64,000 bases of DNA from an uncultured Nitrososphaeraceae archaeon (GCA_963765895.1 CAVXZB010000024.1:128001-192000); one strand, 5' to 3'. Shown: positions 16,560 through 40,730, counted from the first letter of the stretch. A program made the numbers and translations. Notes: a model not told the origin generated them from the letters alone.

Positions 16560-17633
16560 TTACGACCATGGATTTATTCCCTTTTGATATCTGGAAGCAT
16601 CAATTAGTCCCTCTGCATATCCTATACTCAATACGGCAAGTTCTAACTTTCCCTGTCCCAAGAATCGTTCAGCGTCATAGATATAGTGCTCGGCATTATC
16701 AAGGGACTCTAGGATCCCTTTGTTACTAAGGGAATCGTTTTCTTTCTCAATGATACATTTTAAATTTCTAAGCGCCAGCTTCGCTTTCGGAGCGTAACGT
16801 TCGATCATCTTGACTGAGAGTCGATGCACATTCAAAGTGTTATCCAATGGACCGTCTAGGTTATGGGTTAGATTAACGATGGCATCCTCTTCGCTAAAAT
16901 GTAACGGTCCAGTAACAACCATAGAATGCGGTCCCGAGCCAAAGTCCAATTCCATTAGGGATCGAATTTTTCCCGAAACTATATTATTATCTTCAGTTCC
17001 TATTCTAGAAGCAATAATAGCGAAAGTATCCTGGTTCAGAATTCCATATTTTAAATCATCTTCAACTCCCAATAGCATTTTTAATGCTTCTTTTGGGTCA
17101 AGAAAGGGCGGTTTGACAGAATCATTAACCGTATATTCGGTTAAAATTAATGTGTGATTACCTGCCAATAAGTTGTCATGGATAGTATTGTAAACGCTAA
17201 TGCTGGATTGTGGCTCGGACATCATCGTCACACTTCTGCCACATTTATAAAAGTGCAAACCTGCTTCTCCTATCACAGAGGTTAAACCGGAAGCTGCATG
17301 AATCACTCTCACGTCAATGGAGCTCCTCTTGGCTCTAACGTATAGTTCTGAATGGGTGGTGGCGATAAGGGGATCTCCATACGATAATAACGCTACTCTT
17401 TTTTTTCTTGCTTCTTCTAGAATTAGTCTGCCATCTTCCACGACCCATCTCTTAACTACAATTATTTCTATTGTGTCGTCATCTATTAACGCTCGTAAGT
17501 TTGTCAGATCACGATCCGAGATTTCACTTGTGAATCTCTCTACACATATTTTTTTACAGCTCTTCAATATATCTATCGCATGAACGCTAAGTCCTTGGTA
17601 CCCATTAATTCCCAATCCAACAAACCAAAGCAT
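16560..17633 (-). CDS. dph5: Diphthine synthase with a C-terminal DUF357-like domain
   Basis: LWFVGLG, GDPLIATTH, HAASG, HTLIL, PHSMVV, LHFSE; C-terminal YIYDAERF..YAEGLIDA. Confidence 0.92.
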   Translation of the reverse strand: MLWFVGLGINGYQGLSVHAIDILKSCKKICVERFTSEISDRDLTNLRALIDDDTIEIIVVKRWVVEDGRLILEEARKKRVALLSYGDPLIATTHSELYVRAKRSSIDVRVIHAASGLTSVIGEAGLHFYKCGRSVTMMSEPQSSISVYNTIHDNLLAGNHTLILTEYTVNDSVKPPFLDPKEALKMLLGVEDDLKYGILNQDTFAIIASRIGTEDNNIVSGKIRSLMELDFGSGPHSMVVTGPLHFSEEDAIVNLTHNLDGPLDNTLNVHRLSVKMIERYAPKAKLALRNLKCIIEKENDSLSNKGILESLDNAEHYIYDAERFLGQGKLELAVLSIGYAEGLIDASRYQKGINPWS

Positions 17634-17679: not shown

Positions 17680-18798
17680 TTATGAGACACTCTTGCGTGC
17701 ATGTAGTCTTGAGATATGAAAAAGAGCCCTTGAGAAAATGTCTATGCTGGTGAGATATTCTTCTAGGTTTACTCGTTCATCGACCGTGTGAGATGCATGA
17801 GGTTCACCAGGACCGTATGTCACTACAGGTATCTTGAAGGCGTTACCCAAAATATTCATATCTCCAGTCCCAGTTTTCCGCAGAAGGGTTGGTCGAATCT
17901 TTCTTACATCAATGATCGATAAGGACATAGCCCTAACTAAGGTTGAGGTATAACTTGCTTCAAAAGGTTCGGTTTGGTCCTGGATTCTATAGGTAGCTCT
18001 CACTCCCTTTTTAGTTGCAACATTAGTTATAATCTCGTCAATAACTGATAATACATATTGAGATTTGATGGTTACCGGAATACGAATGTCAAGAGTTATA
18101 CTAGATTTCCGCGGAGTAACGTTATGACTTGATCCGCCGACTATTTCAGTCAAACTACAGCTTATAGTTTTAGTTTTGTTTTCATCAGCACTAATTCTCG
18201 CCACTTCGGACTTTATCTCTGTCCAGAAATCATAGATTTCCTCAATCGAGTTTTTAGATAGCCAAGGTGCGCTAGCATGTGCGCTGTTACCGACATCGCA
18301 TGTCAATCTAATAGATACTCTACCTTTATAGGCAATTGTAATATTATGTATGCCGCTTGGTTCACCGAAGATAGCATAGTCAAGCGGTAATCTGGACGCA
18401 ACAAGGTTTTTCACTCCTGTGGCGTTTCCTTCTTCATCTACAACACCCACAAATGAGATCGTGCCTTTCTGTTTTGGAAATTCGGAAGCCGCGAGAAGCA
18501 TAGAAATCAACGCCGCTTTAGCATCCGATGCTCCTCGTCCATACAAATAGCCGTCGTCGATCCTTACAGGAATTCGTCCAGGGACTGTGTCCATATGACC
18601 ACAAAGCAAGATTTTAGGATCTCCAGTACCCCTAGTTGCTAAGATATTTCCTACGCTATCAATATAGGTCTGCTCAAATCCTAATTCTTCGCTGCATCTT
18701 GTCTTTAGCATGTTAGCCAGCGCTGCTTCCGATCTGGACGGCGTATACAATTCTAGGGCCATCTTTAGTAATTCTATGGCATAATTTATCGAAACCAA
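17680..18798 (-). CDS. lysK: [LysW]-lysine/[LysW]-ornithine hydrolase (M20)
   Basis: GHMDTV, GRGASDAK, DEEG, GEPS, GTGDMN, YGPG..H; lies in the lysW operon. Confidence 0.9.
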   Translation of the reverse strand: MVSINYAIELLKMALELYTPSRSEAALANMLKTRCSEELGFEQTYIDSVGNILATRGTGDPKILLCGHMDTVPGRIPVRIDDGYLYGRGASDAKAALISMLLAASEFPKQKGTISFVGVVDEEGNATGVKNLVASRLPLDYAIFGEPSGIHNITIAYKGRVSIRLTCDVGNSAHASAPWLSKNSIEEIYDFWTEIKSEVARISADENKTKTISCSLTEIVGGSSHNVTPRKSSITLDIRIPVTIKSQYVLSVIDEIITNVATKKGVRATYRIQDQTEPFEASYTSTLVRAMSLSIIDVRKIRPTLLRKTGTGDMNILGNAFKIPVVTYGPGEPHASHTVDERVNLEEYLTSIDIFSRALFHISRLHARKSVS

Positions 18799-18811: not shown

Positions 18812-19681
18812 CTAATTTCCTGCTTTGTGGACGAATTCTACTATTTGTCCCGGAATATCCACCCCGGTCACCTTGACGGTATTTTTAAACTCAGTCGTAT
18901 TATTCACCTCGTGAACTACGAGTCCCTCCTTCTTGCTCTCCATTAAATCGACACCGACAATTTTGCCATTGACTGCTCTGCTAGCTTCTAGGCATACATC
19001 TTCTAGCTCCTTGGTAACGGGACAATTTTCGGCACGAGCACCTAAGGCCATATTTGTTTTCCACTCTCCAATCGCCGAGTATCGATAGATGGCGGCTACC
19101 ACCCTTTCGCCAACAATTATAGCCCTTATATCTCTGGGAGGCCGATCAACAAATTCTTCAAAATAATATACCTGATACAAGGGAAACATATGCTCCCTAT
19201 GCTCGATTACGCCCTTTGCTGCCTCTTTATCATTCAATACAGCAATTAGCCTGCCCCAACTACCAATCGTTGGCTTTATTATGGCAGGGTATCCCAACTC
19301 ATCGAGCGCTGCAATAGCTGATGATTCCGAGAACGCAGTAATCGCCTTTGGCGTCCTTACACCAGCTTTCCGAAGCATCATATGCGTGTACAGTTTGTTG
19401 CCGCATACTGAATTTGTAATTAACGGATTAAACACATTTGCCCCCAGACCTTCTAACGCGGCTGTAGAATGAATATTCTTAAAGTAACTTACACATCGCT
19501 GGATGATTGTAAAACCCTTATATTGAAACTCTTTATTCAAATCTACAAAGAGGCTTTTGCAATCGATATTGACGGGGTCAAATCCGCGCTTCTTTGCTGC
19601 TTCATATAATGCCTTTTCTTCCCACCTAATTTGGTCATAGAGAATTGCGAAATGAAGAGAAGATTTAACTTCGTCCGTCAC
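18812..19681 (-). CDS. lysX: Alpha-aminoadipate--LysW ligase (ATP-grasp)
   Basis: IRWEEK, QRCVSY, GSWGRL, RDIR, EVNNTTEF; GTG start overlaps the lysW stop. Confidence 0.9.
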   Translation of the reverse strand: MTDEVKSSLHFAILYDQIRWEEKALYEAAKKRGFDPVNIDCKSLFVDLNKEFQYKGFTIIQRCVSYFKNIHSTAALEGLGANVFNPLITNSVCGNKLYTHMMLRKAGVRTPKAITAFSESSAIAALDELGYPAIIKPTIGSWGRLIAVLNDKEAAKGVIEHREHMFPLYQVYYFEEFVDRPPRDIRAIIVGERVVAAIYRYSAIGEWKTNMALGARAENCPVTKELEDVCLEASRAVNGKIVGVDLMESKKEGLVVHEVNNTTEFKNTVKVTGVDIPGQIVEFVHKAGN

Positions 19682-19845
19682 TGGCCCCAATCCTCACCGA
19701 CTGTCTGGGCCGGCTTAAGGCGGAATTCCGTTCCTTCTTTTACTAATTCATAACTTGCCCCACAATCTTGACAAGTTACTATTTCTCCCTCTATCGAATC
19801 TGAAGGAGGCTTAATTTCAGCATCGCATTCTGGACACTTCACCAT
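19678..19845 (-). CDS. lysW: LysW amino-group carrier protein (55 aa, not in the ORF track)
   Basis: Manual translation MVKCPECDAEIKPPSDSIEGEIVTCQDCGASYELVKEGTEFRLKPAQTVGEDWGQ. Confidence 0.93.
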   Translation of the reverse strand: MVKCPECDAEIKPPSDSIEGEIVTCQDCGASYELVKEGTEFRLKPAQTVGEDWGQ

Positions 19846-19855
19846 TTTTAATCAC

Positions 19856-21080
19856 TTACTCCTTTGCCTTTAGATTTGGATATACATTATTAAGTATCTT
19901 TCTTTCCAGCCGATCGTCCAAGTATAGCTCCAATATATCACCCATTCTAAGATCCTTAAGTCCTCGGGCCAATTTTTCGGCTTCATGATTGCTTGTTTCT
20001 AATCCAAGTAAAGACAAAAGATAAGCTCGCTCCATTTTTGCCTGCAAGCTCGCCAAATACTATTTTTCGCCTATTCCCAACTATTCTCGGCTCGATAATC
20101 TCGTATGCAGAGGGATCTCGTAATATCGCAGCGAGATGAGTACCCGCCTTATGCTTATATGCGCTATCTCCCACAATTGGTTTCGACTCAGGAACCTCCA
20201 ATCCTGTATAAAGCGAAATAGTCTTTGACAGATCCTTCAACATGTGTAATCTGAGGTCATTGTTAGATTTGTAAATTAGCATCAAAGCTACTGCAGTCTC
20301 AGCCAGCGACGGAATGCCTGTTCGCTCTCCTAATCCATCTATTGTAGTATGTATTTGATTTGCTCCTGCATCACAGCCCGCCAGTGCATTTGCCAATGCA
20401 AGTCCCAAATCATTGTGACAGTGAACGTCTAGCAAGCTAGTCGACGTGTCAATGCTTTGGTAAACACGACTAACAAGATTATACATGCCCTTTGGTCTCA
20501 TTATGCCAACAGTATCCGGAATGCTTATCCTTTCTATTTTTCGATTGTTCATTTCCTTGCACATATCAATAAGAAATGAAGGATCCGTTCGACTGGCGTC
20601 CTCCATTGTGAAACGAGCCTTTAAACCATGTGATTTTATGTAGTCTGCAACATCTAAAGCCCTATTTTTTGCTTCTTCCCTTGATATTTTTAATTTCGAG
20701 GACAAATGAATATCGGAAATCCCCATGTACGTAGCTACCCATTGGGCATCGCAACTGAGTGCAACGTCAATATCAGATTTCATTGCCCTCACATGGGCTA
20801 AGATATCTGCCTTCAGTCCTTGCTTTATGATTGTCTTTGTAGAAATAAAATGATCAGGTGAAACGACCGGGCTTATCTCAATCTGATTGACACCAAAGGA
20901 ATCAAGCATCCATGCAATTTGAATTCGCTGTTTTGTAGTAAATGAAACACCGGGATGTTGTTCGCCTTCCCTAAGCGTTGAGTCTAGTATTTGAATATTG
21001 TCAAGTTCCTTATCTGATTCATTATAGATATACGCATAATGGTTCGGATCTGACGGTTTTAGTGACATTTTCTTATCCAT
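19856..21080 (-). CDS. Homocitrate synthase / LeuA family; +1 frameshift at ~20028
   Basis: DSTLREGEQ, PDTVG, HCHNDLG, GLGERTG, HKAGTH; GKNGA continues as AYLLSLLGLE in another frame. Confidence 0.88.
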
Positions 21081-21201
21081 TAGACTTATTTTCGTATAAA
21101 TATAAACCTTATCGCAATATGGAACAATCGATGATTTCTAGCATAAGATAGAATCTGATACAATAGATATTCTTACCACTTTTAACCTACTAACGCCTAT
21201 A

Positions 21202-21627
21202 CTAGCGAATGGTTCTTAGGACTATAACGGTATTAGTATCGGCTACTCCTTCAGTCCTACGAACGTCATCGATACATCGATTAATTTCGGCGATCGAAGT
21301 GGATGAAATTATAGCTGCTATGTCATACTGGCCAGTAATTTCGTAGATAGTTTGGACGCCCGTTAGTTTCATCAAATTGGCTGAAACTGTAGAGGTGTCA
21401 GATGTTGAACTGACTGAAATTAGAGTTATTGCACTTGTCTTGTCAGCACTCTGTGTTGCAATGGTAAACTTCGTTATAATTCCACTTTGTGTCAAATTCT
21501 TTACTCGTCTTCGAACAGCCGACTCTGAATAGCCGATTTCGTTTGCAATGTCTACAAAGGACTTTCTCGCATCCTCTTGAAGGATCTTGATTATCTTCTC
21601 ATCTATAGAATCCTGCTTATTTGACAT
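21202..21627 (-). CDS. lysM: Lrp/AsnC-family regulator LysM
   Basis: HTH DARKSFVDIA..SESAVRRRV; YEITGQYD; operon context. Confidence 0.88.
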   Translation of the reverse strand: MSNKQDSIDEKIIKILQEDARKSFVDIANEIGYSESAVRRRVKNLTQSGIITKFTIATQSADKTSAITLISVSSTSDTSTVSANLMKLTGVQTIYEITGQYDIAAIISSTSIAEINRCIDDVRRTEGVADTNTVIVLRTIR

Positions 21628-22798
21628 TTTTTCTTTCCTCTTCCTTGGTGAGTAATTTATCTATCTTTTCCAGTGCAGATGAGACCATAGATTCATCTAT
21701 CACTAGCGGTGGCAACAACCTAATAATATTTCTTCCAGAGTAAAGCATTAGTATCCCATTTTTTATGCCATCAAGCAATAGATCTCTGACGTCAAACCGG
21801 AGTTCTATCGCAATCATCAGTCCTAATCCTCTTATTTCCCTAACTATTTTGTGCTTATCCTTCAAGCCATGTAGTCCATCCTTAAAGTACTTGCCTATTT
21901 TGGCTGCGTTATCTACTAGTCTGTCTTCAACTAACGCATCTAGAGCCGCCGAAGCTGCGGTACACGCTACAGGATTGCCAGCAAATGTAGAAGAGTGTTC
22001 CCCTATCTTCATAGAATCAATTATTTCTGGCTTGGTTAGAGTGAGAGCCATCGGTATACCACCACCAATTCCCTTAGCTAGACACATGATATCTGGAATG
22101 GTCTTCCAGTGTTCTCCGGCCCACATTTTGCCAGTTCTTCCCAGTCCAGATTGGATTTCATCATAAATTAGAACTATTTTTCGACTCGTACAGAATTCCC
22201 GAATTCTTTGTAATAATCCATCCGGCGGGATTATGATACCTGTCTCACCTTGAATCGGTTCTAATATTACTGTCCCGATCGAGTCGTTTATTTCCTCACC
22301 CAACCTTGCTAGATCATTGTAAGGAACGAATTTTACCAGATCCAAAAGCGGCATAAATGGCTTACGGTACTTTTCGTTGTATGTAACGGAAAGTGCGCCT
22401 AGAGTTTTGCCGTGGTAGCCACCTGCCATTGCAATTATTCCGGCCTTTCCAGTATATTTTCGAGCGAATTTTAGGGCTGCCTCAACTGATTCAGCACCGC
22501 TATTGCTAAAGGCTACTTTCGAGAGCCCAGCAGGGGAGATCTTTGCTAATTTTTCCAAAAACTCCAATCGAGTATCGTTATAGGCCGACATATGACAAAC
22601 GATGAGCTTTTCAACTTGGCTCTTAATTGCTCGAACTACTCTATCGTTACAATGCCCTACTAGGGCTACACCGTACCCGGCCATACAATCGATATATTCT
22701 CTCCCTTCATCGTCCCAGACTTTGGCGCCCTTTCCACGTGATATGTTTATGGGAAATCTTTGATACAGATTTCCCATAAATCGATCTTCAGAATTCAT
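21617..22798 (-). CDS. lysJ: [LysW]-aminoadipate/glutamate semialdehyde aminotransferase (class III)
   Basis: NSGAESVE, YHGKT, EPIQGE, DEIQSGLGRTG, AKGIGGG. Confidence 0.9.
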   Translation of the reverse strand: MNSEDRFMGNLYQRFPINISRGKGAKVWDDEGREYIDCMAGYGVALVGHCNDRVVRAIKSQVEKLIVCHMSAYNDTRLEFLEKLAKISPAGLSKVAFSNSGAESVEAALKFARKYTGKAGIIAMAGGYHGKTLGALSVTYNEKYRKPFMPLLDLVKFVPYNDLARLGEEINDSIGTVILEPIQGETGIIIPPDGLLQRIREFCTSRKIVLIYDEIQSGLGRTGKMWAGEHWKTIPDIMCLAKGIGGGIPMALTLTKPEIIDSMKIGEHSSTFAGNPVACTAASAALDALVEDRLVDNAAKIGKYFKDGLHGLKDKHKIVREIRGLGLMIAIELRFDVRDLLLDGIKNGILMLYSGRNIIRLLPPLVIDESMVSSALEKIDKLLTKEEERKNVK

Positions 22799-23601
22799 CT
22801 TTGAGTGATTACAGTACATTGATTATGAGAAAGGCATGCGGAGATAGGATTTTCAATTAATCCCGATCCGATAATAGATTCATTCACGCCCATTTCCAGT
22901 GCCTCAGTGCACGCTAACAGCTTCTTTTCCATCCCAAATCCGATTGAAGGCAATAATTCCTTGGCCCGTTCTAACGTCATATTTGAAATAACTTCGCTAT
23001 TTATGATCAAACCTTTGACATCAGTCATAAACAATATCTTATCGGCTTTTAATCCACCTGCTATGTATGCAGCCGCCCTGTCTCCATCTATATTGAGAAA
23101 TTCAAAATCATCACTTAGTGCGATAGGTGAGATAACAGGAACATACCCTTCCTTCACAAGAAGATCGACTAATGAAGGATCTATATCGCGTATTTTACCT
23201 GTATAACCTCCTTCAATTATCATCTTCCTACCTTTCTCATTTATTATAACAAGCTTTTTCTTCCGGTCTGCCTTTATGGTAACTCCATCAATCCCAGATA
23301 TCCCGACCGCCTTTATACCGTATCGTATAAGCATGCCCACGATCATCTTGTTAATCTTTCCAGACATTACCATAGTGTATATTTCAATTGTTTCTTTATC
23401 TGTATATCTACTCCTGACCCCTTGTGGCGAAACTATGAACCTTTGCTCCTTACCAAGTTTGGTCGCTATATTAGTAACATCTTTTCCACCGCCGTGAACA
23501 ATCACTATTTTTTCGTTTTTCATGATTTGTCTTACATCCGGAAAGGTACTAGGATGTAAACGATCTGATACGACACTACCACCTAGTTTTATGACTATCA
23601 T
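22795..23601 (-). CDS. lysZ: [LysW]-aminoadipate/glutamate kinase
   Basis: VIKLGGS, VHGGG, SPQGVRSRYTD, GGYTGK, NIDGDRAA. Confidence 0.92.
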   Translation of the reverse strand: MIVIKLGGSVVSDRLHPSTFPDVRQIMKNEKIVIVHGGGKDVTNIATKLGKEQRFIVSPQGVRSRYTDKETIEIYTMVMSGKINKMIVGMLIRYGIKAVGISGIDGVTIKADRKKKLVIINEKGRKMIIEGGYTGKIRDIDPSLVDLLVKEGYVPVISPIALSDDFEFLNIDGDRAAAYIAGGLKADKILFMTDVKGLIINSEVISNMTLERAKELLPSIGFGMEKKLLACTEALEMGVNESIIGSGLIENPISACLSHNQCTVITQR

Positions 23602-24650
23602 ACTGGAGTAACTGGAGTGTGTTTAAGACCATCAGTTTCATCATATGCTAACATGACATTCATATTCTGAATTGCCGAGCCGGCAGCTCCTTTAACTAAA
23701 TTATCTGATGCCGACAGCGCAACAAGTCTTTGATTCTCCTCGTCGACTTCGAATCCCAAATCACAGAAATTAGATCCGATTAAAAACTTTGGATCTGGGA
23801 ATTTGTATAATCCTTTTTTATCACGGATAAATCTGATAAACGGTTCATTCTTGTATGAAGTTCTATAAATTTTCCAGAGATCAATCTCAGGTACTGTTCG
23901 CTTTAAGAAGGTATGATTAGTGGTCAAAATCCCTCGTACAACATTTACTGCATGTGGTGTCATACCTATTCTGATCGCTCTCTTGGCAACTAGGGCTAAT
24001 TCCTGTTCAATTTCTCCTGTATGCCTATGTTTCACTGGTTTGTAAGGACGAATTACACCGTAACGCATGGCATGATGAGTGCCAGCATTTGCTTTAGATC
24101 CTGCACCAGAAGATCCTATTTTACTATCGACAATAATATGATCGGTATCTATCAAATCATTTGCAATCAAGGGTTTTATTGCAAGAAGAGATGTGACAGC
24201 CATGCAGCCAGGGCAAGATACCAATTGAGCTCGTTTGATATCGGCCCGATGAAACTCTGGCACGCCATAAACAGATTTTGAGAGTAATTCAGGAAACGGA
24301 TGTTCCCATCCGTACCACTTTACATAATCCTTTGGATTCTTCAAACGGAAGTCAGCTGATAAATCTACGATCTTAATTCCTAGGTCGTAAAGGTCTTTCA
24401 CGATCTCCTTTGACTTACCATGAGGCAGAGCAGTGAATACCAAGTCGCATGTATTACCAAGTCTATCTATACTCATGTCAGAAAATGTGATATCTATGAA
24501 TCCCTTTAGACTAGGATGTATTCTGTGCACATATTCACCAGCCTTCTGTCTAGAAGTAACAGTACTTAATTCAATCTTTGGATGACCTACTAGAAGGCGC
24601 AATAGCTCACCGCCTACATATCCAGATGCTCCTACTACACCAACTCTCAT
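23598..24650 (-). CDS. lysY: [LysW]-phosphate reductase (LysY/ArgC)
   Basis: GASGYVGGE, DLSADFR, PGC, HRHTGE, DNLVKGAAG. Confidence 0.92.
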   Translation of the reverse strand: MRVGVVGASGYVGGELLRLLVGHPKIELSTVTSRQKAGEYVHRIHPSLKGFIDITFSDMSIDRLGNTCDLVFTALPHGKSKEIVKDLYDLGIKIVDLSADFRLKNPKDYVKWYGWEHPFPELLSKSVYGVPEFHRADIKRAQLVSCPGCMAVTSLLAIKPLIANDLIDTDHIIVDSKIGSSGAGSKANAGTHHAMRYGVIRPYKPVKHRHTGEIEQELALVAKRAIRIGMTPHAVNVVRGILTTNHTFLKRTVPEIDLWKIYRTSYKNEPFIRFIRDKKGLYKFPDPKFLIGSNFCDLGFEVDEENQRLVALSASDNLVKGAAGSAIQNMNVMLAYDETDGLKHTPVTPV

Positions 24651-24790
24651 GCTATTTATTTCTACCCTGTTTCCTCGTTTAGCTTCTTATGAATTTTGTT
24701 ATACAGCAACAGTTTCACTTTCACTTTTACTTCCATTGATATGTGCGAGACATACTGTTGGATAATCTTCATATGACCTGATGGCTGCAA

Positions 24791-25651
24791 CTAGTTCCTT
24801 GCGGATTCAATGCTGTAATCTATTATGGCATTTGCGATATCAGTTTTAGCAACCTTAGAAGCCCCATGAAATTCAACAGTGTTATTAATTTCGTGTACTA
24901 ACAGACCTCTCGTATCATCTTCCATTAGGTCGACTCCCAATACCCCGCCTCCTACCACCCTAGCCGCCTTCAGAGTAATATCTTCTAACTCCTTTGTAAT
25001 CAATGCCTCTTCTGTTCGACCTCCTCTTGCAATATTCGTCCTCCATTCCTTGTTCGCCGAATACCTATAGACCGCTGCAATAACTCGATCTCCCACTACT
25101 ATACATCTAAGATCACGAGGCGGTCTCTTAACCATTTCCTGGATATAATATATACGGGATAGGGGATTGTCATCCTCCTCCCTTAATTCTACGATCATAT
25201 TCGCAGCTTCATTATCTCGCAAAGGAAATACACCTCGCCCCCACGAGCCAACTATTGGCTTAACTACTAGAGGAAAGCCAGTTTTGTTAATTAAATTTAA
25301 TAATGATTCAGAGCTGAAAGCGAAATGAGTAGTAGGAGTTGGTATATTTTGTTTGGCAAGCATAATTGAAGTTAGTAATTTATTTCCGCATATTTCACCT
25401 ACTTTGAAGCTATTGATGACTAAAAATCCTAAAAATTCAAGACATGCAGTTAAGTATAGTCCTCTGTAATGGCTTATACTTCTTTGTAGGACAATATCGC
25501 CTAACTCTAAGTCATTTTTTTTGCTATTAGTACCAATATTGATGCTCTTTGCATCTATAATCTGCGTTTTTAAACCTCTCATTCTAGCTTTGTCATATAA
25601 TTCCTTTTCTTCAAAGCGAACTTTGTCGTAAATAATGCAGAGTTTGACCAT
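24791..25651 (-). CDS. argX: Glutamate--LysW ligase, ArgX/LysX paralogue
   Basis: ATP-grasp with GSWGRG and EINNTVEF; next to argG and the second lysW; substrate specificity is inferred from context only. Confidence 0.8.
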   Translation of the reverse strand: MVKLCIIYDKVRFEEKELYDKARMRGLKTQIIDAKSINIGTNSKKNDLELGDIVLQRSISHYRGLYLTACLEFLGFLVINSFKVGEICGNKLLTSIMLAKQNIPTPTTHFAFSSESLLNLINKTGFPLVVKPIVGSWGRGVFPLRDNEAANMIVELREEDDNPLSRIYYIQEMVKRPPRDLRCIVVGDRVIAAVYRYSANKEWRTNIARGGRTEEALITKELEDITLKAARVVGGGVLGVDLMEDDTRGLLVHEINNTVEFHGASKVAKTDIANAIIDYSIESARN

Positions 25652-25837
25652 CTACTGTCCCCAATCTTCTCCAATGGATTCTGCCGGTTTTACCTCTATT
25701 TTTTGTTCCGATTTTTCGGTTATTTCAAAATTTGCACCGCAGTCAGGGCAGGTTATGATTTCGCCTACCATTGCGTCACTAGGAATGTTGATTTCGGCTC
25801 CACAGTCATTACAGTCTTTCTTCATATTCGCTTTCAT
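25652..25837 (-). CDS. lysW: Second LysW/ArgW carrier protein
   Basis: CNDC..CPDCG..ESIGEDWGQ. Confidence 0.92.
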   Translation of the reverse strand: MKANMKKDCNDCGAEINIPSDAMVGEIITCPDCGANFEITEKSEQKIEVKPAESIGEDWGQ

Positions 25838-27036
25838 CTCCTATTCTGAGATCTGTTTTCGCATATAGAGTTTGCAATTATTGATTGCAAACCCCATAAT
25901 TCAGAGAAGCCCTTCGCCAGATTTTGATCAAATGTAGAACCGGTATCATATGTTGCAAGCGATTCCTTATATATTGAATACATTGATTCCCTTCCTACCA
26001 CTCGCATCGAACCTCTGTGAATCCGTAACTTGACCTTTCCAGTTACCTTTTCCTGAGAGGATTCTACAAATCTCTCTAGATCGGTTCTAAGAGGTTCCTG
26101 CCAAAGTCCACAATAGACAAGCCATGTCCATTGCTCATCAATCATTTGCTTGAATCGAAGTTGGTGATTTGTGAGGACTAATTTTTCGAGGTCTTTGTGA
26201 GATTCAATAATTGCTATTGCGGCTGGCGCTTCATAAATTTCCCTCGATTTCACGCCAACTACGCGGTCTTCGATGTGATCTATTATCCCCACACCACAAT
26301 TGCCGACAGTCTTATTTAGATCATGTATAATCGTCACCAAATCTCTCTCTTTTCCGTTCAATCCAACAGGAAGACCTTTTTCATACTCTATTTCTATATA
26401 AACCGGATCACTATCCTCTGATCTAACAAAGTGGAACAACTCTTCTGGAGGTTCGCAGTAAGAATCTTCAAGCATCCCTCCTTCAACTGCCCTTCCCCAA
26501 TAGTTGGAATCAATGCTATATTTTTTGGCATCGAGTGAAATTGGTATATTCTCTTCCTTGGCAAATCTTAATTCAATATCTCTAGTCAAATTCATATCTC
26601 TAATTGGCGCGACAATCTTTAAATTTGGATCTAGACTTCGAATAGTCACATCAAATCTGATTTGATCATTTCCCTTTCCGGTACACCCATGGGCAACAAT
26701 CTTGGCGTGTTCCTGATGCGCAATATCTACAAGCTTTGTAGCTATTAGCGGCCTTGCTAGCGCAGTTGCAAGAGGGTACTTTCCCTGATACAGCCCATTT
26801 GCTTGTATTGATGGTGAAATGTAACTTGTAGCGAATTCTTTTTTTGCATCGATATGTATGTGTTTAGTGGCACCTAAGGACATCGCCTTTTGTTCCAGAT
26901 TGGCAAAGTCCTCATCTTGACCAAGGTCTATTGTAAGTGTTACGACGTCTAGATTATTGAGTTTCTGCAAATAACGCACACAAACCGAGGTATCTAATCC
27001 GCCAGAATAGGCTAGTACAACTTTGTTGATTGCCAT
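25834..27036 (-). CDS. argG: Argininosuccinate synthase
   Basis: LAYSGGLDTS, ALARPLI, HGCTGKGNDQ, KSREIYEAP. Confidence 0.96.
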   Translation of the reverse strand: MAINKVVLAYSGGLDTSVCVRYLQKLNNLDVVTLTIDLGQDEDFANLEQKAMSLGATKHIHIDAKKEFATSYISPSIQANGLYQGKYPLATALARPLIATKLVDIAHQEHAKIVAHGCTGKGNDQIRFDVTIRSLDPNLKIVAPIRDMNLTRDIELRFAKEENIPISLDAKKYSIDSNYWGRAVEGGMLEDSYCEPPEELFHFVRSEDSDPVYIEIEYEKGLPVGLNGKERDLVTIIHDLNKTVGNCGVGIIDHIEDRVVGVKSREIYEAPAAIAIIESHKDLEKLVLTNHQLRFKQMIDEQWTWLVYCGLWQEPLRTDLERFVESSQEKVTGKVKLRIHRGSMRVVGRESMYSIYKESLATYDTGSTFDQNLAKGFSELWGLQSIIANSICENRSQNRR

Positions 27037-27084
27037 ACAAGGCGTTCCCAATAGTGACACTACATTTATATTTTATGATCAAGA

Positions 27085-40044: not shown

Positions 40045-40697
40045 TTAGTCCCACTTACTCCACGCGGCCATCCACCTATATGTCCACGTGTTTAGTTTAG
40101 CACCCAAAGCCGCAATTGGTACGGATAGCACTGCCCCCGCGCCTGCTCCTAAGGCTACAGGACTATTGTAGAATTTACCTACCTGAGGTTCAATTGGAGT
40201 CATGTATGGCGGCAATGTCGGACGGGGATACTTGAAGGCTACCTCTAATGGATCTCTGATCAGTAAAAGGTTGATCATATTGAACATTGGAAGAGATAGT
40301 CCTACTAGCGTTCCGCCAATTATTATAGGCAGCATGCTTATTCCTCCTAGTCGCCCAATAAGTCAAGTCTAATAACATTGCCGAGGGTATCCAGATAGGG
40401 TCCTGTAACGAAGTCGTATGGGTAGCCTAATGCGAACCAGGCGCCTTTTGCAACCCATGTATATATCGTCATAATGGTTGCATAATAAGTAGCGGTACCC
40501 GGCACGCCTGTAAACAGCATATAGTATATTGCCCCCACCACAAGCATTGTCGATTGAGATATAGAGAATACGACGAATGACGTCCATGCCCAGTCGGTGT
40601 AGAAGATATAGTCTCCAGCATTAATAGTCAATAGTGTGCTATTTACAGCAACTACTACTATGAAGAGGTAGTGCGTTGTGCGTCGAAGCCAGACCAT
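40045..40697 (-). CDS. amoA: Archaeal ammonia monooxygenase subunit A; two +1 frameshifts (~40398, ~40328)
   Basis: MVWLRR..NAGDYIFYTDWAW..GYPYDF / MLLDLTYWATRRNKH / PRPTLPPYMTPIEPQVGKFY..WMAAWSKWD over three frames; span 653 nt = 651 (216 aa + stop) + 2. Confidence 0.96.
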
Positions 40698-40718
40698 TAG
40701 TAACGTACTCTGATAGGT

Positions 40719-40730
40719 AATATATAAAAT
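40719..40730 (-). promoter_or_regulatory. TATA box of amoA (probably a leaderless transcript)
   Basis: TTTATATA on the minus strand ~24 nt upstream of ATG 40697. Confidence 0.55.

Follow-up and report, generated by a model that had tools for sequence, protein, structure and literature searches.

The stretch of DNA analysed here (64,000 nucleotides, referred to in its entirety as the window) derives from an uncultured Nitrososphaeraceae archaeon (GCA_963765895.1 CAVXZB010000024.1:128001-192000) and encodes two carrier proteins of the LysW/ArgW family together with their partner enzymes. In the studied Thermus/Sulfolobus-type systems, as described in PMC10433800, the substrate is held on the gamma-carboxyl of a C-terminal glutamate (Glu, E), and the preceding EDWG tail is recognised by a GSWGR motif in the ligase; unlike these proteins, both carriers of the window end in glutamine (Gln, Q). 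The LysX-linked carrier, lysW (19678..19845, minus strand; 55 amino acids), ends ...PAQTVGEDWGQ, with the Gln codon CAG at 19681-19683 and a TGA stop at 19678-19680, while the ArgX-linked, argW-type carrier (25652..25837, minus strand; 61 amino acids) ends ...PAESIGEDWGQ, with CAG at 25655-25657 and a TAG stop at 25652-25654. A preceding sequence-only reading of the window had reported that both copies end EDWG-CAG-stop, and the open reading frames (ORFs) lie where it placed them and encode a terminal Gln in both cases. The C-terminal peptide for the window is LKPAQTVGEDWGQ.

The two proteins, 49% identical to one another, are assigned to the family by profile, zinc ribbon, EDWG tail and gene context, and the C-terminal residue is where both depart from it. 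Scores against NCBIfam NF041070 (carrier_LysW_Arch, cut-off 75 bits) are 83.8 bits for lysW and 89.6 bits for the argW-type carrier, and those against PF21344 (Zn_ribbon_LysW, cut-off 27) are 46.2 and 47.8 bits, respectively. The CxxC...CxxC zinc ribbon (C4, C7, C25 and C28) is invariant across 17 aligned carriers, as is the EDWG tail (E51, D52, W53 and G54), irrespective of whether Q or E follows, and two orthologous carrier types can be told apart, one LysX-linked (...KPAQxVGEDWGx) and one ArgX-linked (...KxAExVGEDWGx). Fold family, the four zinc-ribbon cysteines, the EDWG tail, the gene cluster and the partners LysX/ArgX with GSWGR, LysZ, LysY, LysJ and LysK are all shared with the LysW/ArgW systems of Thermus thermophilus, Sulfolobus/Sulfurisphaera, Thermococcus kodakarensis and Natrinema gari. 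The solved LysW proteins 3vpb, 3wwl and 5k2m can be aligned to the final residue, and all three end EDWGE.

The carriers lie in a conserved cluster, argG-argW-argX-lysY-lysZ-lysJ-lysM-HCS-lysW-lysX-lysK (HCS, homocitrate synthase), with every gene on the minus strand. The RimK-family ATP-grasp ligase gene lysX (18812..19690; TIGR02144 313.8 bits, cut-off 275.6), whose product carries the GSWGR motif, shares 13 bases with the end of lysW, and the argX-type ligase gene (24791..25651; TIGR02144 291.3 bits), likewise encoding GSWGR, abuts the argW-type carrier. Both branches would draw on common downstream genes: lysZ, for the [LysW]-aminoadipate/[LysW]-glutamate kinase (22795..23601; NF010662 302.5 bits, cut-off 194); the lysY/argC-type reductase gene (23598..24650; TIGR01850 418 bits); a single-copy aminotransferase gene, lysJ (21617..22819); and lysK, for the M20 [LysW]-lysine/ornithine hydrolase (17680..18798; TIGR01902 261 bits, cut-off 163), the genome's only true copy. 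The Lrp-type regulator gene lysM (21202..21627) scores just below threshold (NF040947 176.9 bits, cut-off 180), and argG, for argininosuccinate synthase (25834..27060; profile match), flanks the cluster. One lysY/Z/J/K set with two carrier-ligase pairs in the same order recurs in most loci fetched from the order; in some genomes of the order the cluster is split or is without homocitrate synthase.

The claim that the rest of the pathway is intact needs amending for homocitrate synthase (19856..21080), which is split into ORFs at 19983-21080 and, encoding 66 amino acids, 19856-20056 by a one-base insertion at about 20028. The extra base is absent from the related genomes G004 and G001 and from the contigs of four sequencing runs, and the split is most likely an assembly error rather than a pseudogene.

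The same cannot be said of the Gln codons, for which sequencing error is ruled out by homologues, by the distribution of the ending within the genus and order, and by independent contigs. Among the 120 best homologues listed for the first carrier, lysW, 109 end in Q (107 of them as GEDWGQ), eight in E, two in L and one in V, and in the genus of the window all seven sampled genomes, its own included, carry Q in both copies. Logan contigs from four runs, each belonging to a different study, span the first Gln site; in run X1 the eight differences listed for 19600-20242 are the contig's eight other letters, and none falls at 19678-19695. The second site rests on relatives rather than on contigs, the ArgW of G004 being 100% identical and those of G001 and G002 ending in Q. 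The Q ending is a lineage trait.

Distribution of the two endings

Two surveys, confined to a single phylum, were made on an order sample of 401 genomes, scanned for EDWG[E/Q]-stop, EDWGQ-stop and the archaeal AmoA family, and on a phylum sample, also of 401 genomes. (The order tallies take in the unpublished genomes G118, G268 and G279, on which nothing hinges.) EDWG[E/Q]-stop was present in 373 of the 401 order genomes, EDWGQ-stop in 233 and AmoA in 236. By family, and leaving out the window's own genome, EDWGQ-stop and AmoA were found in 111/111 and 104/111 genomes of the window's family (f1), 111/112 and 111/112 of f13, 7/11 and 11/11 of f9, and 2/9 and 9/9 of f4; the 16 other families of the order (157 genomes) have no true EDWGQ-stop and no AmoA. 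Within the order, the ending is therefore limited to four amoA-bearing families, barring a false match in G338, where, as for an extra match in G007, the pattern is followed by TGG and no stop. A further match, in G442, lies outside any LysW-like ORF, and the actual LysW of that genome ends in E.

The proportion of Q and E copies per genome differs between families. Counted from per-genome rows, 79 of the 112 genomes of f1 have Q in every EDWG[E/Q]-stop match, 33 are mixed and none is E-only, whereas nearly every genome of f13 has one Q copy, which is LysX-linked and reads CAG-TGA, and one E copy. Despite the presence of amoA, 7/9 genomes of f4 and 4/11 of f9 are E-only. Among 80 named LysX-linked carrier records, 64 end in Q, including records named Nitrososphaera, Nitrosotalea, Nitrosopelagicus, Nitrosocosmicus, Nitrosopumilaceae and Candidatus Nitrosomirales, and 16 in E, with Candidatus Nitrosopolaris among them. 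Q is the rule in most of the ammonia-oxidising archaea sampled.

Beyond the order, EDWGQ-stop was found in the phylum sample in 13/16 genomes of f28, 9/27 of f34 and one genome each of f49 and f55. Genomes fetched from all four show the match to be a genuine lysW that forms part of a lysY-lysZ-lysW-lysX-lysJ...lysK cluster, with lysY at a separate locus in G556 (f49). No EDWGQ-stop was found in f22 (0/17), f26 (0/24), f29 (0/23), f30 (0/27), f37 (0/16) and further families of the same sample, and no true EDWGQ-stop in the genome samples of f10 (0/97), f7 (0/13) and f15 (0/15). A profile search returned 40 Q against 79 E endings among the 119 best matches read, and the closest named Q forms outside the order belong to Candidatus Caldarchaeum and Candidatus Nezhaarchaeales, which we take not to be ammonia oxidisers. 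The LysW-like carriers of two other phylum families (L161:7165-7464 and L162:9854-10039) end EDYGE, a variant of the recognition motif.

The suggestion that the Gln ending is linked to nitrogen or to the ammonia-oxidiser lifestyle does not survive these surveys as a general rule: amoA-bearing genomes of f4 and f9 are E-only, and Q-ending proteins are the sole carriers in genomes of f28, f34, f49 and f55. Q lysW clusters also occur in families whose closest named proteins come from Caldarchaeum and Nezhaarchaeales, and the trait does not appear to be tied to ammonia oxidation.

The state of the terminal residue has changed repeatedly. On a tree of LysY, LysZ, LysJ and ArgG from 33 genomes, at least two changes are required for the LysX-linked copy and at least three for the ArgX-linked copy, and on a tree of LysY, LysZ and LysJ from 63 genomes the character 'any Q' versus 'E-only' changes at least eight times. 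Switching is seen inside two genera (g16, with E in G051 and G088 but Q in G111, and g72, with E in G243 but Q in G151 and G336) and between the sister genomes G618 (Q) and G709 (E); further E/Q sister contrasts on the 63-genome tree set G020 apart from g47, and G015 and G072 apart from the remaining genomes of f4. Both Gln codons, CAA and CAG, are used, all three stops (TGA, TAG and TAA) follow them, and there is no conserved context beyond the stop. Among the 112 genomes of f13, 111 retain the C of CAG in the LysX-linked copy, while at the third position of the Gly codon before it all four bases occur.

Functional requirement and partner enzymes

Evidence that the Gln-ending proteins are used comes from genomes that have nothing else. 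A LysW search of the whole assembly of the window's genome (4.9 Mb, 88% complete, a figure that limits all absences reported for this genome) returned the two Q-ending carriers alone and no E-ending LysW elsewhere. Alternative routes to lysine and arginine appear closed in the same assembly, with no match to ArgJ, DapB or DapF, and with a LysA-like pyridoxal phosphate (PLP) decarboxylase (C14:6123-7382) that scores 247 bits, under the cut-off of 297.9, and is probably another decarboxylase. Exactly one LysW, Q-ending, is present in seven genomes that are 98-99% complete (G007, G079, G415, G429, G422, G436 and G556), five of them from f28, f34 and f49 and two, each a single contig, from genus g2 of the window's family; the Q ending of G079, whose locus lies outside the tabulated sets, rests on a single reading. 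In g2 (L042 and L044), argW has disappeared and argG lies immediately next to argX, so that, as the gene content indicates, the single Q-ending LysW must serve both ligases. Since Q-ending proteins are the sole carriers in the window's own and in near-complete genomes, and ArgJ, DapB and DapF were not matched in the former, the gene complement implies that they must work and are no dead end; it follows that either an activation step or a different loading chemistry is needed, as had been proposed from the window alone.

A corresponding adaptation in the partner enzymes was sought by comparing those that accompany Q and E carriers. Forty of the 48 columns that are invariant or nearly so among 22 E-partnered ligases keep that status among 31 Q-partnered ligases, GSWGR included, and the remaining eight show conservative minority changes; within GSWGR, the residues G, S, W and G are invariant in all 53 ligases, and R is present in 21/22 E-partnered and 31/31 Q-partnered sequences. 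Extension to 104 ligases (54 E- and 50 Q-partnered) gave no column that discriminates Q from E, with 28 of 29 columns of at least 95% conservation kept, and none was found in LysY (66 genomes), LysJ (54), LysK (60) or LysZ (64). In every locus read, including those of genomes with both Q and E copies, one lysY, lysZ, lysJ and lysK set is present for both carriers.

Several apparent associations were discarded. Six ArgX columns that seemed Q-linked followed phylogeny after within-genus contrasts had been added, as did positions 115 and 126 of LysY and position 295 of LysJ once E-only relatives were included (position 126 of Thermus LysY is F, as in the E group). Three LysX columns split Q from E only when G009 was left out; the LysW of this genome ends in E, and its LysX keeps the Q-group residue. 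Residue 103 of LysX, four after a conserved Asn-Lys, is His in 20/20 Q-partnered LysX of amoA-bearing genomes and in the E-partnered G009, and Thr, Ser or Ala in six LysX from non-amoA families, a pattern that tracks lineage and not the Q state.

Loading of a glutamine-ending carrier

The difficulty posed by these proteins is chemical: a special solution is needed because an ATP-grasp ligase requires a carboxylate, and the Gln side chain has none. On the favoured reading, quite possible though short of probable, LysW-Gln and ArgW-Gln are working pro-carriers, and enzymes of the pathway itself would convert their C-terminal side-chain amide, the first time each carrier is used, to the canonical Glu or gamma-linked form. 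LysK might cleave the Gln amide, with ammonia leaving in place of lysine or ornithine, or the ATP-grasp ligase might activate the amide oxygen; after the first release by LysK the carrier would be LysW-Glu and could cycle as in Thermus and Sulfolobus, and even a slow conversion would suffice because the carrier is then recycled in this form. Conversion from within the pathway is favoured because switches are frequent in unrelated lineages without change in the six enzymes, because a single downstream set handles both kinds of carrier where they coexist in a cell, because no accessory gene is linked to the clusters, and because hydrolysis of gamma-glutamyl amides on the LysW tail is already the reaction of LysK. 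LysK, of which the window's genome has one copy, is a good candidate for the deamidase, although no LysK column tracks the Q state.

A precedent of this kind is offered by the actinobacterial Pup-Dop-PafA system, in which the modifier likewise ends in Gln in some lineages and in Glu in others. According to PMC8599861, Dop both deamidates PupQ and acts as the depupylase, and an attack of the Gln amide oxygen on ATP has been proposed; for LysW such a deamidation is a proposal only. The proteins themselves are unrelated, the Pup ligase and deamidase being glutamine-synthetase-like and the LysW enzymes of the ATP-grasp and M20 types, and the window's genome has no Pup_ligase match.

Several considerations weigh against the pro-carrier proposal, the support for which is wholly comparative. 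M20 enzymes normally bind through the leaving amino acid, and across 60 genomes no LysK residue tracks Q. If the core enzymes simply tolerated the residue, Q might be expected sporadically everywhere, yet none was found in several large groups. In f13, the conservation of the first codon base suggests the contrary of mere tolerance, since Q in the LysX-linked copy looks actively maintained, and a pro-form used once per molecule would not be an obvious explanation for selection of this sort. The missing covariation would, moreover, also fit ligation to the alpha-carboxyl if a flexible tail absorbs the difference.

A broader possibility, which we consider improbable but worth serious attention, dispenses with deamidation by a hydrolase: the ATP-grasp ligase would use the Gln tail directly, either by phosphorylating the carboxamide and exchanging ammonia for the substrate amine, or by alpha-ligation. 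The latter is the principal rival in its own right, though an unlikely one. Aminoadipate or glutamate would be placed on the alpha-carboxylate of the C-terminal Gln, and LysK would cut the resulting peptide bond and restore LysW-Gln. The profile for RimK-family alpha-L-glutamate ligases, TIGR00768, is matched by LysX and ArgX (277 bits, cut-off 143), their next-best matches, MptN, RimK and CofF, are alpha-ligases by name, and the alpha-carboxylate that RimK, MptN and CofF acylate on a terminal glutamate is the sole carboxylate on the terminal residue of a Gln-ending LysW; a lasting role for Gln would also explain selection for Q in the LysX-linked copy of f13, and the downstream enzymes, homologous to the N-acetyl-handling ArgB, ArgC, ArgD and ArgE, may be largely indifferent to the acyl group. 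What is established for LysX and ArgX, unlike these relatives, is gamma-ligation on a carrier protein, and alpha use here is hypothetical. PMC10433800 gives a gamma-carboxyl link for every studied system and reports that the Natrinema ArgW variant E54A, which retains its alpha-carboxylate, causes arginine auxotrophy. Each of at least eight switches would need a change of regiochemistry with no ligase column changing, unless the lineages concerned already alpha-ligate, one LysZ/Y/J/K set would have to handle alpha- and gamma-linked tails in mixed genomes, and the tail has the same length in Q and E orthologues.

Somewhat further down in plausibility, and doubtful in our estimation, is a dedicated deamidase encoded elsewhere in the genome that would convert LysW-Gln to LysW-Glu and whose patchy presence would decide which lineages can afford Q. 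The restriction of Q to some lineages is what a permissive accessory gene would be expected to produce, and Pup has such an enzyme (PMC8599861). No amidase-like gene stands beside the clusters in any lineage read: the neighbours found, none acceptable as the deamidase, were argH, a CobW-like GTPase, SurE, an HpcH aldolase, a radical SAM enzyme, AFOR and a thiolase, and, in addition, a CPSase small chain, HIT and a dph5-like methylase fused to DUF357. Two candidate families were covered genome-wide. The Dop/PafA family (Pup_ligase, PF03136) has no match in the 88%-complete genome of the window, and a CN-hydrolase fails as a universal deamidase, since 2/19 Q genomes lack it (G568 and G618, each 95% complete) and most E-only genomes have it.

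Chemistry at the terminus that never yields a plain Glu form, for example ATP-driven cyclisation of Gln to a glutarimide that is opened by the substrate amine, or an amidine link, is very unlikely. We know of no ATP-grasp precedent, and the active-site columns of the ATP-grasp ligases are unchanged; nothing direct speaks for it beyond the ATP activation of amide or ureido oxygens discussed in PMC8599861.

That the Q copies are inactive decoys or regulators beside an E-ending carrier that does the work would fit f13, where nearly all genomes keep one copy of each; it is rendered highly improbable by the window's genome, which lacks an E copy, by the 79/112 Q-only genomes of f1 and the seven near-complete genomes with a single, Q-ending carrier, and by the zinc-ribbon cysteines and EDWG, which are invariant in both types. 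Archaea form Gln-tRNA(Gln) by transamidation of a Glu-tRNA(Gln) precursor, but decoding of the terminal CAG as Glu, for example through that precursor, can scarcely be entertained given that CAA is also used, that all three stops follow and that no context is conserved beyond them.

The earlier suggestion that the step is unreported has held up so far, in that no paper mentioning a Gln-ending LysW was found in the full-text literature searched, in which the string EDWGQ has no match, although a passing remark in subscription papers or supplements is possible. PMC6038301 takes the Sulfolobus mechanism for granted in Nitrosopumilus. At the position of the substrate-bearing C-terminal Glu that defines the LysW pathway, the sole carriers of many genomes have Gln; most of the sampled ammonia-oxidising archaea, organisms of great weight in the nitrogen cycle, are among them. 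Either amino-acid biosynthesis includes a Pup-type maturation step that has escaped notice, or the carriers are loaded by a different chemistry, and in either case metabolic models and annotation rules built on the Thermus/Sulfolobus mechanism need a caveat. If the amide oxygen is phosphorylated, the resulting ATP-driven transamidation would be new to ATP-grasp enzymes; if alpha-ligation applies, the link between carrier and substrate in lysine and arginine synthesis would depart from the textbook LysW pathway in much of the archaea, the globally abundant ammonia oxidisers included.

Neighbouring genes and other features of the window

Adjoining lysK, the window encodes at 16560-17633 (minus strand) a diphthine-synthase-like TP_methylase (dph5-like) fused to DUF357. 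The fusion stands beside lysK in most of the loci extending past lysK from the amoA-bearing families f1 and f13 and in two genomes of f4, and in none from f9 or from families without amoA; it has no evident link to the carriers. In four listed f28 loci (L134, L135, L136 and L137), an ORF of about 400 amino acids fills the gap between lysJ and lysK, and the sole gap ORF scanned (L135:8176-9387) contains a GTPase domain of the CobW/HypB/UreG type and might serve the zinc-dependent members of the pathway as a metal chaperone.

Contigs from an RNA library (run X15) span the cluster; as contigs, they are no evidence of transcription. An archaeal amoA lies at 40045-40730 (minus strand) in three frames, matching profile positions 1-86, 84-108 and 109-183, with two frameshifts within about 75 bases that could represent either further assembly indel errors or a broken copy.

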